IMG/VR virus record: IMGVR_UViG_2864926767_000001
Direction: 5' to 3' (one strand)
Length of the DNA: 64,000 nt
DNA from: a virus
A model generated the notes under the pieces. The model was given only the letters and a program-made list of their open reading frames with translations. It did no database searches and was not told where the DNA came from. The translations under genes were made by a program, and so were the position numbers. Shown in pieces: positions 1 to 12,176 of the stretch (position 1 is the stretch's first letter; each line of letters begins with the position of its first letter).

Positions 1-134
1 TGACTGACGGAAAAAGCGTTGGTCTGCTCAGCGCCCTGACTAAGGCAGGTCTTGCCTTCGAGGGCCGTCAGCACAACTCCCTCAACGATGCGAAGAACCT
101 GGCCCGCCTGATCACCAAGGAAAACCTCCTCTAG
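1..134 (+). CDS. 3' end of a DEDDh 3'-5' exonuclease (ERI1/KapD-like), partial
   Basis: Frame from nt 3 reads TDGKSVGLLSALTKAGLAFEGRQHNSLNDAKNLARL..*, resembling the ExoIII H-x4-D motif; N-terminus lies outside the window. Confidence 0.55.
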   Translation, partial: TDGKSVGLLSALTKAGLAFEGRQHNSLNDAKNLARLITKENLL

Positions 135-146
135 CGATCTAGCGGC

Positions 147-184
147 CAAAGAAAAAGCCGCCGGGCATTGCGCCAGGCGGCTTT
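147..184 (-). terminator. Intrinsic terminator ending the tRNA operon (possibly bidirectional)
   Basis: Minus strand AAAGCCGCC-13nt-GGCGGCTTTTTCTTT, just downstream of the last tRNA. Confidence 0.8.
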
Positions 185-209: not shown

Positions 210-285
210 TGGAGCGGATAAGGAGGTTCGAACTCCTGGCCTGCGCCTTGGCAAGACGCCGCTCTACCAGCTGAGCTATATCCGC
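210..285 (-). tRNA. tRNA-Gly(GCC)
   Basis: Cloverleaf with encoded CCA; anticodon loop TTGCCAA. Confidence 0.95.
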
Positions 286-286
286 G

Positions 287-394
287 TGGTGGACGTTGCA
301 GGAGTCCAACCTGCTACCCCTCCTTGCGCAATGGCTGAGCCTAGCGTGGTAGCGAACTACCAGGCCCGCAAGGAAGAGCTGCCTCAGCACGCCC
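287..394 (-). ncRNA. 108-nt tRNA-like RNA with G3-U70 acceptor stem, T-arm and CCA but no anticodon arm
   Basis: GGGCGT/ACGTCC-A-CCA acceptor; T-arm GCAGG-TTGGACT-CCTGC; 12-bp helix CTCTTCCTTGCG/CGCAAGGAGGGG; internal UUCG hairpin. Confidence 0.7.
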
Positions 395-415
395 CTTGAA
401 ACTACACAGACAACT

Positions 416-491
416 TGGTGGAGAATGCGGGGTTCGAACCCGCGACCTCCTGCATGCCATGCAGGCGCTCTCCCAACTGAGCTAAGACCCC
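416..491 (-). tRNA. tRNA-Ala(GGC)
   Basis: Cloverleaf with CCA; loop ATGGCAT; G3-U70; U5.U68 and C6.U67 mismatches. Confidence 0.92.
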
Positions 492-499
492 GATGAAAC

Positions 500-575
500 T
501 GGTGGAGCAGGTGGGGCTCGAACCCACGACCTCAGGCATGCCATGCCTGCGCTCTTCTAACTGAGCTACAACCCC
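500..575 (-). tRNA. tRNA-Ala(GGC)
   Basis: Cloverleaf with CCA; loop ATGGCAT; G3-U70. Confidence 0.92.
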
Positions 576-590
576 GGTACTTCATTGAAC

Positions 591-666
591 TGGTGGAGAA
601 TGCGGGGCTCGAACCCGCGACCTCCTGCTTGCAAGGCAGGCGCTCTTCCAACTGAGCTAAGACCCC
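591..666 (-). tRNA. tRNA-Ala(TGC)
   Basis: Cloverleaf with CCA; loop CTTGCAA; G3-U70; same mismatched acceptor stem as 416..491. Confidence 0.93.
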
Positions 667-671
667 AAAAC

Positions 672-746
672 TGGTGCATGCGGAAAGATTCGAACTTTCG
701 GCCCCTCGATTATCGGTCGAGTGCTCTACCGCTGAGCTACGCGTGC
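672..746 (-). tRNA. tRNA-Ile(GAT)
   Basis: Cloverleaf with CCA; loop CCGATAA (C at position 33). Confidence 0.88.
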
Positions 747-790
747 ACAACCCTTTTCTACTCCGGCGGAAATCCAACGCCGGGTGAACC

Positions 791-866
791 TGGTGCCGAA
801 TGAGGGACTCGAACCCATCGCCCTCGCCCTTACCAAGGGCGCGCTCTACCACTGAGCTAAAACGGC
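791..866 (-). tRNA. tRNA-Thr(GGT)
   Basis: Cloverleaf with CCA; loop TTGGTAA. Confidence 0.92.
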
Positions 867-876
867 AGTGAAACAT

Positions 877-1134
877 TGGTGGAGATGACGGGAGTTGAAC
901 CCGCGCAACTGCTACTCAAGACCTTTCAATCCCGAGCTCCAAGGAGCTTTAGACTACGCTTCCCGTGCTTGTTTGGCCCCGCCAGGGTGGAGTGATTACC
1001 AGAACCCTTGAGGGGGCTCCCCTGGCCGCTATCGGTGCTTCTGAGACGTTCCGCTCCTCAAGATGAACAGTCGGGTTTTACCCCTCCGGCTTCTAGTTTA
1101 TGCCGTGCTCGCGACCAACTGAGCATCCATCCCC
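877..1134 (-). ncRNA. 258-nt tmRNA-like / tRNA-like RNA (G3-U70 acceptor, tmRNA-type T-arm, internal pseudoknot)
   Basis: GGGGATG/CATCTCC-A-CCA acceptor; 3' end GCGGGTTCAACTCCCGTCATCTCCACCA resembles ssrA 3' ends; interleaved CTTGAGG/CCTCAAG and GCCAGGG/CCCTGGC pairings. Confidence 0.7.
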
Positions 1135-1139
1135 GTATG

Positions 1140-1215
1140 TGGTGGTAACGAAGGGCTTCGAACCCCTGACCTACCCCGTATGAAGGGGCCGCTCTACCAG
1201 CTGAGCTACGTTACC
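1140..1215 (-). tRNA. tRNA-Met(CAT), elongator-like (Ile2 not excluded)
   Basis: Cloverleaf with CCA; loop TTCATAC; paired G1-C72. Confidence 0.88.
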
Positions 1216-1216
1216 T

Positions 1217-1286
1217 TGGCAGACCGCCCCGGATTCGAACCGAGCCTCTTCAGTTTTGGAGACCTAGAGGGTGCCAGACACGACCT
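1217..1286 (-). tRNA. tRNA-Trp(CCA), 70 nt, lacking a normal D-arm
   Basis: Acceptor AGGTCGT/GCGGTCT-G-CCA; loop CTCCAAA; T-loop TTCGAAT; only 9 nt in place of the D-arm. Confidence 0.72.
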
Positions 1287-1314
1287 GTTAAAACCTTCAA
1301 TTTCCGCTTAAAAG

Positions 1315-1391
1315 TGGGTTGAGAGATGGGGATCGAACCCACGACAACCGGAGCCACAATCCGGTGCTCTGCCAACTGAGCTACTCTCAAC
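1315..1391 (-). tRNA. tRNA-His(GTG)
   Basis: Cloverleaf with G-1, C73 and CCA; loop TTGTGGC. Confidence 0.95.
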
Positions 1392-1400
1392 ATCGAAACT

Positions 1401-1476
1401 TGGTAGATCCGGGCGGGCTCGAACCGCCGACCCTCTGCTTGTAAGGCAGATGCTCTTCCCACTGAGCTACAGATCT
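1401..1476 (-). tRNA. tRNA-Val(TAC)
   Basis: Cloverleaf with CCA; loop CTTACAA. Confidence 0.95.
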
Positions 1477-1490
1477 ACAAACCTTGAAAA

Positions 1491-1565
1491 TGGCGGCCCT
1501 TGGTGGGATCGAACCACCTCGTGGCGGGGTCAAATCCCGCTGCCTTCCCACTTGGCTAAAGGGCT
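1491..1565 (-). tRNA. tRNA-Gln(TTG)
   Basis: Cloverleaf with CCA; loop TTTTGAC-type with TTG anticodon; A1.C72 mismatch. Confidence 0.92.
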
Positions 1566-1608
1566 ACAACTCTTCTGCCTGCCTCTCTTCCGCAGGACTT
1601 CTTCTGTT

Positions 1609-1684
1609 TGGCGGCCCCGGTAGGACTCGAACCTACGCATGCCTGGATCAGAACCAGGTGCCTTACCAGCTTGGCTACAGGGCT
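1609..1684 (-). tRNA. tRNA-Gln(CTG)
   Basis: Cloverleaf with CCA; loop TTCTGAT. Confidence 0.93.
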
Positions 1685-1690
1685 ACTGTG

Positions 1691-1775
1691 TGGTGATGGA
1701 GGTAGGATTCGAACCTACGAACCTTCCGGAGCGGGGTTACAGTCCGCCGGCTTTGACCACTTGCACTACTCCATC
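1691..1775 (-). tRNA. tRNA-Tyr(GTA)
   Basis: Cloverleaf with long variable arm and CCA; loop CTGTAAC. Confidence 0.93.
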
Positions 1776-1861
1776 ATGACTTTCTCGCCAGGGCCGATTC
1801 AGGCCACCTCCTGGCTCACTGATTTTTTTCTGCCGGCGGAGGCTTCGCCTCTCGCCAAATT

Positions 1862-1937
1862 TGGCTCCGATTCCTGGACTCGAACCAGGGACTCCCTAGT
1901 TAACAGCTAGGTACTCTACCAACTGAGCTAAACCGGA
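1862..1937 (-). tRNA. tRNA-Asn(GTT)
   Basis: Cloverleaf with CCA; loop CTGTTAA. Confidence 0.95.
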
Positions 1938-1981
1938 ATTGACCTTCTCAAATCCCTGCAAAATCCTGCAGGCCTTGCATT

Positions 1982-2057
1982 TGGTGGGCCGCATTGGACT
2001 TGAACCAATGACCACCCGCTTAAGAGGCGGGTACTCTACCAACTGAGTTAGCAGCCC
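1982..2057 (-). tRNA. tRNA-Lys(CTT)
   Basis: Cloverleaf with CCA; loop CTCTTAA. Confidence 0.95.
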
Positions 2058-2160
2058 AAAATCATCCCCAGTGTATCGCCGTGGGGTGCGCCGCATACGA
2101 AGCGGGTCGGGTCTCAGCTCCCTGCAGGTTGCCCGTGGGCAATCCTGGTCTGCTGGTCTC
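2058..2160 (-). repeat. Structured ~100-nt element, copy 1 (immediately upstream of tRNA-Lys(CTT))
   Basis: Aligns with 2567..2664, with compensatory base changes in two stems. Confidence 0.75.
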
Positions 2161-2162
2161 TT

Positions 2163-2240
2163 TGGCGGGCCGGGGGAGGACTCGAACCCCCTACCTCAAG
2201 GATTTGGAATCCCGTATGCAGCCAGTTACACCTCCGACCC
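2163..2240 (-). tRNA. tRNA-Trp(CCA)
   Basis: Cloverleaf with G73 and CCA; loop TTCCAAA; one extra C between T-stem and acceptor stem. Confidence 0.85.
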
Positions 2241-2335
2241 GTGTTACTCAGCGAGCGGCCAGGAATTTTTACCCTACCAGTCTGCTGTCTTGCCCATCGA
2301 GTTGGCGTATTCCACCATCTCAATTACCCCTAAAT

Positions 2336-2411
2336 TGGCTCCGGGAACAGGGCTCGAACCTGTGACCCGCGCATTAACAGTGCGCTGCTCTTCCGACTGA
2401 GCTATCCCGGA
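2336..2411 (-). tRNA. tRNA-Asn(GTT)
   Basis: Cloverleaf with CCA; loop CTGTTAA. Confidence 0.95.
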
Positions 2412-2490
2412 AAGGTACATCTACATCTCTGCGTAAGCGGCCCCTTCACGCGCCCTTCCGCTGGCTCCCCGTAACGGGAGCCCCCTGATT

Positions 2491-2566
2491 TGGTGGGCCG
2501 CATTGGATTCGAACCAATGACCAGATGGTTAAAAGCCACCTGCTCTGCCAGCTGAGCTAGCGACCC
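2491..2566 (-). tRNA. tRNA-Lys(TTT)
   Basis: Cloverleaf with CCA; loop CTTTTAA. Confidence 0.95.
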
Positions 2567-2664
2567 AAAATCGTCCCCAGTGTGTCGCCGTGGGGTGCGC
2601 AGCATACGGAGCTGGCCGGGTCTCGGCTCTTTGCAGGTTGGCCAGAAGGCGCCTGGGCTGCCGG
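2567..2664 (-). repeat. Structured ~100-nt element, copy 2 (immediately upstream of tRNA-Lys(TTT))
   Basis: Aligns with 2058..2160. Confidence 0.75.
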
Positions 2665-2716
2665 TTATCTATCTTGCCCTCCGCCCGCTTGGGCCACTGG
2701 GAGGACATTGCATTTT

Positions 2717-2792
2717 TGGTGGAAAAGGACAGGTTTGAACTGCCGACCTCACCCTTATCAGGGGTGCGCTCTACCAACTGAGCTACTCTTCC
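2717..2792 (-). tRNA. tRNA-Ile(GAT)
   Basis: Cloverleaf with CCA; loop CTGATAA. Confidence 0.95.
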
Positions 2793-2797
2793 AAAGT

Positions 2798-2872
2798 TGG
2801 AGCTGAAGACAAGATTCGAACTTGCATAAAGGTGGGTTGCAATCACCTGCCTATCCGTTCAGCCACTTCAGC
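2798..2872 (-). tRNA. tRNA-Cys(GCA)
   Basis: Cloverleaf with U73 and CCA; loop TTGCAAC. Confidence 0.92.
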
Positions 2873-2969
2873 ATCAAACTTTTCTCAAATTTTTGGCGCA
2901 CTTATCCCGCAACTTGAATAACAGTTTTAAAACAACTTTTAAGACAACATCTTAAACTTCAAAAACAAC

Positions 2970-3047
2970 TGGTGCATCAGGGCAGATTTGAACTGCCGAC
3001 CCTCGGGGTTTCACGCCGATGCTCTAACCAAACTGAGCTACCGATGC
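2970..3047 (-). tRNA. tRNA-Phe(GAA)
   Basis: Cloverleaf with CCA; loop GTGAAAC; C31.C39 mismatch. Confidence 0.88.
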
Positions 3048-3085
3048 ATTTAAAACATGAACTTAGAACTGCTAAGTTTCACTAT

Positions 3086-3162
3086 TGGTTGCGGGAGACG
3101 GATTCGAACCGCCGACCGCCGGATTATGAGTCCGACCATCTACCAACTGATTGTATCCCGCC
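3086..3162 (-). tRNA. tRNA-Met(CAT), initiator-like
   Basis: Cloverleaf with CCA; loop CTCATAA; unpaired G1.A72; only two G-C pairs near the anticodon loop. Confidence 0.85.
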
Positions 3163-3169
3163 TAAAACC

Positions 3170-3256
3170 TGGTGGAGCCGGTAGGACTTGAACCTACAGT
3201 GGGCGTCGCCCGGCGGATTTACAGTCCGCTGACTTTACCAATTCGTCTACGTCTCC
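3170..3256 (-). tRNA. tRNA-Tyr(GTA), first gene of the operon
   Basis: Cloverleaf with long variable arm and CCA; loop CTGTAAA. Confidence 0.93.
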
Positions 3257-3570: not shown

Positions 3571-3671
3571 TTCAGAAGCTGTTTGCTGCCCCTTCGGCTC
3601 CGTCCTTATCATGGAGATAACAAGCATTACCCACCCTTTGGGTGACTACGCTGCCAACTAGGAGAACAACA

Positions 3672-4610
3672 ATGGTCAGCAGAATTGGACAGGCTCTGAA
3701 GAACTGCCTGACGAACGAAGTAGCTCACGCGAAGGCGATCACTGAGCATGACGCGTCGACCGGTAACAACTTCGCCTACAGGCTCCTCCCCGCCTCCGTT
3801 GTTGGCGCAAGCCTGATGAAGCTGTACCTCTCTGCTTCGCAACCTGGCAACAGCGTTACCGAAAACGTCCTGGCCGCTGGCCAGATGGTCGTCGACGCTA
3901 CCGCCGGCTTCGCAAACGACCACTCGACCGGCCTGATGGTTGGCGGTGCAGTCGTTGCTACTGCCTTCGCCGCCACTTTCGTGAAAGGCCTGGCGCTGGA
4001 AAACGAAGAGCTCCGCAAGCGCCTGAGAGATGCCTTCCAGAAGGAGGGCTATGGCGAAGAGGCCGTTCGATCCGCAGAGCGCGCTCACGCAGCTTTGCTG
4101 AAAACTCACAGCGACCTGAACTCCCTGGTGCACGCTGAGACACAATCGCTGAAGGCGCTGCTGCTCAAGCCGAGCAAGGAGCTGGTGAAAATCGCCAAGA
4201 AGCACAAGGTCGACATCGTTGACCCGGAAGCTCAGCGTGACCTGCAGATGGCTTACATCCACGGCCTACGTCAGGCCCTGGCAGAAGGTGTCGCGAAAGG
4301 TCGTGACATGTCCGGGAGCGTGAAGATCCACTCCAGGGACGTGAAGGCGGCCATCCTCGCCGGCATGACCACCTACTACCAGGCAATCGTGGGCAGCGAG
4401 CCGTCTCTCGGAGCTAAGGTGAAGTACACCATCACCGGGCGTGAAGGAGACCTCATCCAGGACTCCGTTGCCGGCCAGAAGGCCCAGAAAGGCTATGACG
4501 CCATCCGCGCCATGGATGCCGATGCACCGAAGGGTGAGTACTCCAAGAAGGAGATCCTCGAAGCCCTTCAGAAGCGTGAAAGGGATTCCTCGGTCGATCT
4601 CGGTCGCTAA
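3672..4610 (+). CDS. Hypothetical protein (2 possible TM segments; C-terminal PKGEYS motif)
   Basis: AGGAG SD before ATG 3672; coding-like codon bias. Confidence 0.75.
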   Translation: MVSRIGQALKNCLTNEVAHAKAITEHDASTGNNFAYRLLPASVVGASLMKLYLSASQPGNSVTENVLAAGQMVVDATAGFANDHSTGLMVGGAVVATAFAATFVKGLALENEELRKRLRDAFQKEGYGEEAVRSAERAHAALLKTHSDLNSLVHAETQSLKALLLKPSKELVKIAKKHKVDIVDPEAQRDLQMAYIHGLRQALAEGVAKGRDMSGSVKIHSRDVKAAILAGMTTYYQAIVGSEPSLGAKVKYTITGREGDLIQDSVAGQKAQKGYDAIRAMDADAPKGEYSKKEILEALQKRERDSSVDLGR

Positions 4611-5674: not shown

Positions 5675-6222
5675 AATTCCTGGTCTTCGTTCTGTTTGCG
5701 CTTATAGTTGCCGGCTGCTCTTCCAGCCCACCTAAGGCCCCTCTTCCACCACAAACTTCAATCAACTTCGGAACTTCTTTTTCGAACTTCGACAGCCTAC
5801 CCGTAACGCTAAGCGCAGCAGTTTCTAAAGACCCTGTCGCATCGAGTCGGAAATATTCAGAGCAAGACCGAATGCGGGCAGTGAAACGCATCCTCGATGC
5901 GAACTTCACCTACAAGCATGACTTCGCCCAATATGGTCGCGGCGTAGCCTGGCACGCACCCTCCCAGGTAAGGGTCGTCAAAGGGAGGTTCGTCGGTGAT
6001 GTGAAGGACTACTGCGTCCTTGCGAGGGCCATGCTAGAGCAGGCTGGGCTCCCGGCCAGGATCGCCATCACCGGCAGAATCTACGACCGTCAGTTCCACT
6101 TCATTGCCCTTTCAAACAATTATGCAATCGACAAACTTCAATTAGATATTCGCGCAACTTCCTACTATGAAATCCAGGCCGTATCGCGGAACGACATAAA
6201 CAAGCCCTGGGAACTCAAGTAA
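5671..6222 (+). CDS. Lipoprotein, transglutaminase-like cysteine-peptidase fold, nucleophile motif altered
   Basis: Lipobox IVAGC; ATGA coupling to ycbK-like gene; GDVKDYC where GDCEDYA is expected; later H and D present. Confidence 0.6.
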   Translation: MKFLVFVLFALIVAGCSSSPPKAPLPPQTSINFGTSFSNFDSLPVTLSAAVSKDPVASSRKYSEQDRMRAVKRILDANFTYKHDFAQYGRGVAWHAPSQVRVVKGRFVGDVKDYCVLARAMLEQAGLPARIAITGRIYDRQFHFIALSNNYAIDKLQLDIRATSYYEIQAVSRNDINKPWELK

Positions 6223-6225
6223 CCG

Positions 6226-6254
6226 TTGGCACTGTAGTTTTCGTGTAATAAACT
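6226..6254 (+). promoter_or_regulatory. Putative sigma70 promoter
   Basis: TTGGCA-17-TAAACT. Confidence 0.45.
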
Positions 6255-11129: not shown

Positions 11130-12176
11130 TCAGGGCTCAAAGCCTTCATTCGTCGCCTTTGGCGAGACTAGCTGTAGAAGATGCCCGTACTCCTCCTGGG
11201 CATCTTCATCAGCGAACTTCGCACCTCGCAGAACCCCTTTGCTCACCACGATCTCGCTGTTCGGCGAGATGGTTCCCTGGATGATGTCCTCGGGCCGGTA
11301 CTCAACTTCGAGAATCAGGTCGGCCAGGTCGCTCATGCCGGTGTAGTACTCCGTGAAGCCCACATCAGTTCCGAGATATAGGCCGCCTTTCGGCGCGAGG
11401 ACGCGACCTAGTTCCAGGTCGACAGACTCGGCTCCGTAGAGGGTACTGACCTTCTGGGTATCAGGGTCAAAGGCTACAACCCGGTAGCCCATGTGTGGCC
11501 CACTTTTGGCTCCCTCGAAGTCACGGAAGAACTTAAGCTCTGCCTCCGACAGATGGGTAGCAACGGTCACGCCTTCCAGGTAGTTGCTTACCTCATTCGC
11601 CAGATCCTGCGCCAGCCCGTTACCCCGGAGGTCGCGCAGGACGTAGATGCCCTGCACTACCTTCTCCTTATCGACCGCAACACCAGCCACTGCCTCTCCA
11701 TCCTTGTAGAGCACGAATCGAGTAACTGTGCCCTGGATTTGGCGAATATCGTGACGGATTGGGGCTGCAATCCTCTCATCTCCGTTCTGGCCCGCCAGGC
11801 GGCCGTCGTTCGGGCCAAGGAGAATTCTGGATGCCGAGTTCGAATACAGCCACTCGCGCTGAGCAATCGCTGCGGACGGGTCAGAGCTCTTCGGAGCCCG
11901 GCCATCGACCGTGAAGAAAAACTCGAAACCGCTGTGTTGTGCGAAGAAAACGACCTCCTCGTCAAACCGGGCCACGTAGAAGACAACGTCCTCATAGGCT
12001 CTGACCAGGTCATCCAGGCTCTCACCATCATCCAGCCAGGCGCTCGGGTCGCAATTCCTTTCAAATTCAGCTTGGCTGATACGGGTCGCCCTCCCCATCA
12101 GGCTATGCCAGATGGCCTCACCGTTGTCGGCGCGGGAACGAAGTGCCTGGCAGGTCAGCGCGTACTTAAAGTCCAT
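11130..12176 (-). CDS. Multidomain (polyvalent-type) protein with a central GNAT acetyltransferase domain
   Basis: VAGVAV..QGIYVLRDLRGNGLAQDL matches GNAT motif A. Confidence 0.65.
   Translation of the reverse strand: MDFKYALTCQALRSRADNGEAIWHSLMGRATRISQAEFERNCDPSAWLDDGESLDDLVRAYEDVVFYVARFDEEVVFFAQHSGFEFFFTVDGRAPKSSDPSAAIAQREWLYSNSASRILLGPNDGRLAGQNGDERIAAPIRHDIRQIQGTVTRFVLYKDGEAVAGVAVDKEKVVQGIYVLRDLRGNGLAQDLANEVSNYLEGVTVATHLSEAELKFFRDFEGAKSGPHMGYRVVAFDPDTQKVSTLYGAESVDLELGRVLAPKGGLYLGTDVGFTEYYTGMSDLADLILEVEYRPEDIIQGTISPNSEIVVSKGVLRGAKFADEDAQEEYGHLLQLVSPKATNEGFEP

Follow-up and report, generated by a model that had tools for sequence, protein, structure and literature searches.

What kind of RNA, if any, is made from a stretch of 108 nucleotides that has both ends of an alanine tRNA but no anticodon arm between them? 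The element, which we call X108, occupies positions 287–394 on the minus strand of the window, that is, the whole 64,000-nucleotide stretch of viral-record DNA analyzed here (IMG/VR IMGVR_UViG_2864926767_000001); the 5′ end of its RNA would lie at 394 and its 3′ CCA at 289–287. An earlier description made from the letters only, which we call the sequence-only reading, took X108 for an alanine-identity, anticodon-less tRNA mimic and, more specifically, for a miniature tmRNA tRNA-like domain (TLD).

Results

X108 in the tRNA operon of a megaplasmid

X108 is the second-to-last gene of a 3.3-kb tRNA operon in which all tRNA genes within 210–3256 are on the minus strand, 21 of them called by ARAGORN and 21 by Rfam. 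According to ARAGORN, three tRNA-Ala genes immediately precede it; the adjoining one, tRNA-Ala(GGC) (416–491, minus strand; ARAGORN and Rfam), is separated from X108 by a spacer of 21 nt (395–415). Downstream, the gap between the CCA of X108 and G1 of the operon's last gene, tRNA-Gly(GCC) (210–285, minus strand; ARAGORN and Rfam), is one nucleotide (286), as had been noted before, and in this position ordinary tRNA processing should excise X108. The array's intrinsic terminator, read from the sequence at 146–181 (minus strand), is a GCCGCC...GGCGGC hairpin followed by a U-run; the consensus scan skipped it owing to a loop-size limit. An 83-codon open reading frame at 139–390 overlaps tRNA-Gly and is spurious.

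The contig that contains the window is 450 kb long with 57.5% GC, within a 7.58-Mb assembly whose large chromosomal contigs have ∼66% GC; contigs with this lower GC amount to ∼1.0 Mb. Proteins encoded in the window include a TrfA-like initiator, an NAD-dependent ligase, an FtsH-like protease and an Mfd-like helicase. We read the replicon as a ∼1-Mb megaplasmid of the pMPPla107 type in a Pseudomonas-like host of 66% GC, because pBASL58 and two other ∼1-Mb Pseudomonas plasmids encode homologues of a 258-nt RNA of the array. The first of these, from Pseudomonas sp. Leaf58, is a member of the pMPPla107 family, whose megaplasmids reportedly carry 44–54 tRNA genes (PMC6482414).

Converging on the array terminator is a gene for a 184-aa exonuclease of the RNase T/DEDD family (window 1–134, plus strand; L001:794–1348). 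Its homologues, with 54–60% identity, lie on metagenome contigs of 0.8–1 Mb, suggesting uncultured relatives of the megaplasmid, and no tRNA array lies next to these homologues. The divergent gene at 3642–4610 gave no homologue.

A tRNA-like end on a rod-shaped body

The predicted fold of the whole of X108 has a minimum free energy (MFE) of −51.7 kcal/mol (z −2.6), with pair probabilities of 0.77 to 0.999 in its stems. In the acceptor stem, GGGCGU (389–394) pairs with ACGUCC (291–296), giving 6 bp (RNA positions 1–6 with 99–104; probabilities 0.77–0.998) that include G3:U70 (window 392/293) and, as the fifth pair, G5-C68; a G7-A66 mismatch follows. A73 (290) and an encoded CCA (287–289) complete the 3′ end. 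The T-arm GCAGG/UUGGACU/CCUGC (298–314; RNA 81–97) has a perfect 5-bp stem and a deviant loop (303–309) with G at position 56. Where a D-arm would be, there are 9 unpaired nucleotides, the linker GCUGAGGCA (380–388; RNA 7–15), which include GGC, a candidate partner of the G56 T-loop. The acceptor stem, T-arm and linker are as the sequence-only reading describes them, and G3:U70, A73, G2:C71 and CCA make up a full alanine identity set, which predicts charging by AlaRS.

The interior of the molecule is a rod. A helix of 13 bp, one more than counted before, joins RNA positions 16–28 (window 367–379) with 67–79 (316–328), and its outer five pairs include three G-U. It stacks directly on the UUCG hairpin already recognized earlier, which is a 9-bp stem with a C-C mismatch (343–366; RNA 29–52; loop at 353–356). 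Between the hairpin and the 3′ strand of the helix lies a 14-nt bulge, AGGCUCAGCCAUUG (329–342; RNA 53–66), whose 3′ end together with the next bases reads AUUGCGC, the probable remnant of an anticodon loop (U33, UGC, G37). The 5′ strand of the helix contains UCCUU, probably the former 5′ strand of the anticodon stem, and the 3′ strand would comprise the 3′ side of the former loop, the 3′ strand of the stem and the variable region. This inner arm of 64 nt has an MFE of −33.9 kcal/mol (z −4.1); none of 200 shuffled sequences was as stable, and the structure makes up 64% of the ensemble. The antisense strand of X108 folds 10 kcal/mol worse than the sense strand, as is expected from the G-U pairs. 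The additional long-range pairing that had been proposed between GCUGAG and CUCAGC does not hold up: the two hexamers are complementary, but their predicted pairing probability is 0, their pairing in place of the long helix costs ∼12 kcal/mol, and we estimate that ∼1.4 such 6-mer matches are expected by chance in 108 nt.

Scans with Infernal/Rfam and with ARAGORN had been proposed as a check on X108, and neither calls it. ARAGORN passes over it even in intron mode; against Rfam it reaches the gathering score of no family, and a search with 116 nt alone at E≤10 returned nothing. When the ARAGORN threshold was set to 70%, an 81-nt 'tRNA-Trp' appeared, built on the internal acceptor-like heptamer GGGCCUG; it requires mismatched stems and was rejected. 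A descriptor scan of the ∼1 Mb of megaplasmid contigs for non-canonical elements with acceptor, T-arm and CCA found only three, all of them in this array and on the same strand.

Probable descent from a tRNA-Ala(UGC)-type gene

We compared the 3′ half of X108 with those of the array's 19 class I tRNAs. Its score is 13 against tRNA-Ala(UGC), 12 against tRNA-Ala(GGC)1 and at most 5 against the other 17. In the alignment with tRNA-Ala(UGC), which runs from GCAAG to the 3′ end, 31 of 41 positions are identical, and two stem positions show compensated changes (T-stem 51:63, A-U in X108 and G-C in the tRNA; acceptor 4:69, C-G and G-C). From A63 to the 3′ end, the parts of X108 follow one another as in the 3′ half of a tRNA: AUUGCGC (U33, UGC, purine 37), then a stem strand of 5 nt that is complementary to RNA 21–25 (UCCUU), then a short variable region, and finally T-arm and acceptor strand. 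The 5′ part shows no discriminating similarity to the array tRNAs, and the distance from the acceptor strand to the old anticodon-stem strand is just 13 nt, against ∼19 in a tRNA. This arrangement fits a paralogue of the tRNA-Ala(UGC) type, and the simplest history we can infer is that, in a tRNA-Ala paralogue, most of the D-arm was lost and ∼37 nt were inserted where the anticodon loop begins on its 5′ side. The insert has no further copy in the genome that would mark it as a repeat element. We also considered UUGCG, present at RNA 24–28 and 64–68, as a target-site duplication and rejected it: chance alone should give a 5-mer repeat in 108 nt, and deleting one copy together with the insert fails to restore a valid anticodon arm.

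Placed beside tRNA-Ala(UGC), a canonical class I tRNA (RF00005), X108 shares G1-C72, G2-C71, G3:U70, A73, CCA, a 5-bp T-stem, a 7-nt T-loop that keeps U54 and A58, and the setting in a tRNA operon. It differs in having no D-stem, in the ∼37-nt insert, so that there is no 7-nt loop, in G rather than C at position 56, and in the G7-A66 mismatch. The canonical cloverleaf, D-arm and 7-nt anticodon loop are thus all missing, RF00005 is as silent as ARAGORN, and the description of X108 as an anticodon-less tRNA-shaped RNA stands, as judged from its sequence. Partial or degenerate tRNA genes of prokaryotes resemble X108 in being tRNA-derived and in having lost a part essential for decoding. In X108, however, the two ends have stayed in register, the 5′ acceptor strand matches and CCA is encoded, and the gene lies within an operon rather than at an integration scar.

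X108 and tmRNA

A genome-wide search with the tmRNA model RF00023 found two real tmRNAs, one chromosomal (198 bits) and one on megaplasmid contig C32 (145 bits). The megaplasmid tmRNA is full-length (360 nt) and has its own SmpB gene (165 bits) ∼1 kb away (C32:81675–83520); the chromosomal tmRNA and SmpB pair is on contig C16, and the genome has two SmpB genes. A complete trans-translation pair is therefore already present on the megaplasmid. Both tmRNAs begin with GGGGCYGAUUnGGAUUCGAC, where X108 has its linker, and the GGAUUCGAC-type D-loop motif that both contain is absent from X108. The RF00023 matches listed genome-wide include ordinary tRNA-Ala genes and do not include X108. In a 4-kb search by E-value, the one tmRNA-type match close to X108 was to the TLD-only model RF04321, with 17.7 bits (E 1.2) at 302–449, off the boundaries of X108. 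The YrlA model RF02553 gave just one insignificant match of 21 bits (gathering score 69), spanning tRNA-Gly, and none with X108 alone; X108 is unpermuted, its own ends forming the acceptor stem.

These results bear on the claim that X108 is a message-less TLD that binds SmpB (and EF-Tu) and modulates or competes with trans-translation, a mode of action reported for the tmRNA of phage DS6A, which lacks a CDS. Its layout resembles that of a TLD: it has the G3:U70, A73, CCA and T-arm of a tmRNA end, no D-stem, and a long helix that starts one nucleotide from the T-stem, although its acceptor has 6 bp and a G-A mismatch instead of 7 bp and its T-loop has G56. CDS-less tmRNAs are known from phage DS6A, from jakobid mitochondria and from two plastids (Mallomonadaceae) (PMC11915505), and these too are small alanine-identity RNAs with acceptor stem and T-arm but no anticodon and no tag frame, DS6A being the phage-borne case; in addition, one of the two SmpB genes is on the megaplasmid. 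However, the CDS-less tmRNAs are recognizable tmRNA homologues, whereas X108 has neither the tmRNA D-loop motif nor a match to any tmRNA model and is outscored on RF00023 by ordinary tRNA-Ala. Its 3′ half resembles tRNA-Ala(UGC), with a remnant of the anticodon loop, and it would coexist with the full tmRNA and SmpB of the plasmid. We conclude that kinship of X108 with tmRNA is not supported, and we consider the message-less TLD improbable.

G56 in the T-loop and the tRNA elbow

A G at T-loop position 56 occurs elsewhere in the loci that we fetched, where it goes together with a particular D-loop. Among class I tRNAs with C56, 281 of 287 have GG in the D-loop window. Of 27 tRNAs with G56, 16 have only GC or CG there, and most of the other 11 also have GC, usually as GGGC or GGCG. 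The search pattern (UUGGACU plus an alanine 3′ end) selects the tRNA-Ala genes found but not other tRNAs of the same loci, and the six G56 tRNAs of other specificities, which it did not select, are all without GG. This is the pattern expected if the G19:C56 pair of the elbow has been swapped to C19:G56. To judge from G56 and the GGC of its linker, X108 may have kept its elbow contact intact.

A search for relatives

A covariance model built from homologues had been suggested as a further check; the model used here (R1) was built from X108. In the host genome R1 detects only X108 (137 bits), the next best match having 22 bits. In 98 fetched loci it found no homologue, just generic tRNA-shaped matches of at most 26.6 bits, and it found nothing in CP136011, NZ_CP143488 and NZ_CP032678, three ∼1-Mb Pseudomonas plasmids that all have homologous arrays. 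BLAST with X108 against 60 relatives, 33 members of the genus, phages and plasmids gave chance fragments only. Scans of genome, viral and metagenome collections for the exact pattern of T-loop and 3′ end, which may let diverged copies escape, gave no X108 homologue; what they matched was coding sequence, tRNA-Ala genes that share the T-loop, and further RNAs lacking an anticodon. One such exact T-loop match, in plasmid CP136011, lies within coding sequence, and two further viral pattern scans gave nothing. When the 258-nt RNA was used as a marker in 400 genomes of the family, one related array was found, apparently that of the FeN3W plasmid already examined, as its coordinates match. X108 is therefore a singleton among everything searched: no homologues with the compensatory changes of a conserved structured RNA family turned up in genomes, plasmids, phages or metagenomes, and with no homologue no covariation test is possible.

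The 258-nt RNA lies in the same array (877–1134, minus strand) and has, besides a T-arm and a true D-arm, a perfect 7-bp acceptor with G3:U70, A73 and CCA; its RF00023 score of 27 bits is under the gathering score. Its homologues of 236–244 nt are found on three other ∼1-Mb Pseudomonas megaplasmids (L142 4668–4903, L143 5462–5700, L157 about 5994–6237). Because this RNA is conserved across four megaplasmids, operons of this kind demonstrably maintain at least one non-decoding RNA, the 258-nt family. The homologous array of pBASL58 (NZ_CP032678) includes, in addition, a 125-nt tRNA-shaped RNA (L157:7293–7417) that ARAGORN misses. It folds at −54.9 kcal/mol, has a 7-bp acceptor with G3:C70, A73 and CCA, a T-stem whose loop is 8 nt long and three hairpins inside, and is followed at a distance of ∼75 nt by the terminal tRNA-Gly(GCC). 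Both RNAs resemble X108 in the kind of operon, in their acceptor, T-arm and CCA ends and in their replaced interiors. The 125-nt RNA is the positional analogue of X108 but is not convincingly alignable with it (z 2.6); the 258-nt RNA cannot be aligned with it and is present in four megaplasmids, X108 in one.

Discussion

The explanation that we favor, and to which we give an even chance, is that X108 arose recently as a by-product when a tRNA-Ala gene was duplicated, is not essential, and survives as a stable RNA that accepts alanine. The D-arm would have collapsed to the 9-nt linker, and a UUCG-capped hairpin of ∼37 nt would have entered the anticodon loop at its 5′ edge. With its first bases the insert would then pair with the old loop, turning the anticodon arm into a continuous rod of ∼22 bp with the 14-nt bulge, and by this pairing UGC would no longer be displayed in a 7-nt loop. 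X108 is probably co-transcribed with the rest of the array. Bacterial RNase P takes acceptor/T-stem substrates that bear CCA, and it would be expected to cleave at G1 of X108 and at G1 of tRNA-Gly, with the single leftover nucleotide trimmed by a 3′ exonuclease. The product would presumably be alanylated through G3:U70 and A73 by the host's only AlaRS, whose gene is on the chromosome only, because the acceptor/T-arm half alone suffices for this enzyme: G3:U70 minihelices are AlaRS substrates, and a 12-layer stack of acceptor and T-stem with G3:U70 is all that AlaRS needs. The charged RNA would be excluded from ribosomal decoding, and any action it has would be through its acceptor/T-arm half.

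For an origin as a relic of tRNA-Ala speaks the fact that X108 is a singleton and redundant with three tRNA-Ala genes. The mismatched acceptors of five tRNAs upstream of it fit relaxed constraint at the end of the array, and a hairpin insert stacked on the old stem is enough to account for the stable rod. Other observations point away from mere decay and toward a selected, non-decoding alanyl-tRNA mimic, charged by AlaRS and acting through its acceptor/T-arm half, an alternative that we regard as rather unlikely though far from negligible. The acceptor and T stems of X108 are better kept than those of the neighboring bona fide tRNA-Ala genes; its processing and identity elements are intact, and its arm is rigid and well defined. 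G56 in the T-loop is matched by GC in the linker, as in working tRNAs of the G56 type, which suggests that the elbow contact was kept. Four G-U pairs against one internal mismatch, together with the 10 kcal/mol advantage of the sense strand, hint at maintenance at the RNA level, and related arrays hold other non-canonical tRNA-shaped RNAs, one of which, the 258-nt RNA, is conserved. Such a mimic could donate alanine to enzymes that need only the acceptor, such as the host's alanyl-phosphatidylglycerol synthase, or could be a decoy or spare substrate for defense toxins that read the acceptor stem. The host does encode an aminoacyl-phosphatidylglycerol synthase, and that of P. aeruginosa (AlaPGS) uses a tRNA-Ala minihelix as efficiently as the full-length tRNA (PMC6103681). 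With those minihelices X108 has in common the 12-layer stack containing G3:U70, which is all that AlaPGS, too, requires; they are laboratory constructs, whereas X108 occurs as a gene in nature and has a 64-nt rod in addition. Some toxins recognize base pairs of the acceptor stem, and a role in countering tRNA-targeting defenses has been proposed for phage tRNAs (bioRxiv 10.1101/2024.07.05.602228). Against selection stand the lack of any homologue in every search, and so of any sign of conservation, and the fact that hairpin insertion onto the old anticodon stem can explain the stability of the rod. Moreover, no partner gene adjoins X108, the synthase is chromosomal and has normal tRNA-Ala already at hand, and nothing links AlaPGS or acceptor-stem toxins to X108. 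None of our results favors the roles offered in the sequence-only reading, such as an SmpB/EF-Tu decoy, an alanine donor or a toxin decoy. A GNAT protein encoded at 11130–12176 was considered as an aminoacyl-tRNA transferase and set aside, its matches being weak and generic to the GNAT family. The boldest form of the idea, in which the megaplasmid encodes an alanyl carrier that is dedicated to this purpose, does not decode and is barred from the ribosome by the rod shape of its body, we hold to be unlikely. Such a carrier would be a private alanine donor, or a decoy for AlaPGS-type transferases, for toxSAS-like or other acceptor-targeting toxins, or for the plasmid's own SmpB, and X108 would be a young, independently evolved member of a loose class of anticodon-less alanine tRNA mimics.

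Two further accounts fare much worse. X108 could be a decoding tRNA-Ala in which the hairpin is an extra arm and AUUGCGC a usable anticodon loop, and the canonical order can indeed be read in it (stem UCCUU, loop AUUGCGC, stem AAGGA, a 5–6-nt variable region, T-arm and acceptor strand). But the loop would in fact comprise ∼44 nt, and the first bases of the insert are predicted to pair with its 3′ side (G28-C67 probability 0.92), a cloverleaf-like fold is 5.6 kcal/mol costlier than the rod, there is no D-stem, and the intron mode of ARAGORN is silent; we know of no bacterial pathway that splices so short an insert. This makes a decoding function very improbable. We give still less credence to X108 having no RNA product and being a chance tRNA-like stretch or a spacer. 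No sequencing run is listed as containing the X108 stretch, in agreement with that view; for the whole array, only three soil metatranscriptome runs are listed, with small word shares, and these carry no weight either way. Yet acceptor, T-arm, discriminator and CCA are in exact register, within an operon, on the transcribed strand and 1 nt from the next tRNA, and just three such extra elements occur in the ∼1 Mb of megaplasmid contigs, all in this array.

The tRNA arrays of megaplasmids and phages are usually taken as codon-supply kits, and in this one there are also RNAs in which nothing but the chargeable end of the tRNA is left. Should X108 be produced and alanylated, it would be a minihelix-plus-rod of natural origin that draws on AlaRS without feeding translation, and a convenient natural substrate for asking which enzymes read the acceptor end alone. 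If it is a relic, it is a tRNA gene caught losing decoding while keeping its processing and charging signals, which would be a plausible route to tRNA mimics. At present its weight is modest, as a singleton known from sequence alone.

Other unusual genes of these arrays

The five tRNA genes with acceptor mismatches (three Ala, Ile and Thr) lie just upstream of X108, at 416–866 on the minus strand, and the mismatches are at positions from 4:69 to 6:67. U5-U68 and C6-U67 occur in both Ala(GGC)1 and Ala(UGC), single mismatches in Ala(GGC)2 (6:67) and Ile (4:69), and two U-U mismatches, 5:68 and 6:67, in Thr; in related plasmids the acceptor stems of tRNA-Ala are perfectly paired. The mismatches may be a sign of decay, or may let these tRNAs evade enzymes that recognize the acceptor stem.

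The array contains two tRNA-Trp(CCA)-like genes that ARAGORN misses, both on the minus strand. One (1217–1286) is 70 nt long and D-armless, and its 9-nt linker GUCUGGCAC, with GGCA, resembles that of X108; the other (2163–2240) is near-normal and gives only a weak match to the tRNA-Sec model (28 bits). Beyond this plasmid, loci L017–L140, from metagenome, viral and MAG contigs, contain a widespread class of tRNA-Ala with the T-loop UUGGACU (G56) and with GC for GG in the D-loop, which in sequence looks like the C19:G56 swap; many of these genes are missed by ARAGORN. The same loci hold anticodon-less G3:U70 RNAs of 59 to 230 nt (for example at L097, L124, L139, L051 and L089), which belong to no Rfam family where checked. 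Finally, two similar GC-rich blocks of ∼100 nt (2058–2160 and 2567–2664, minus strand) lie directly 5′ of the two tRNA-Lys genes.
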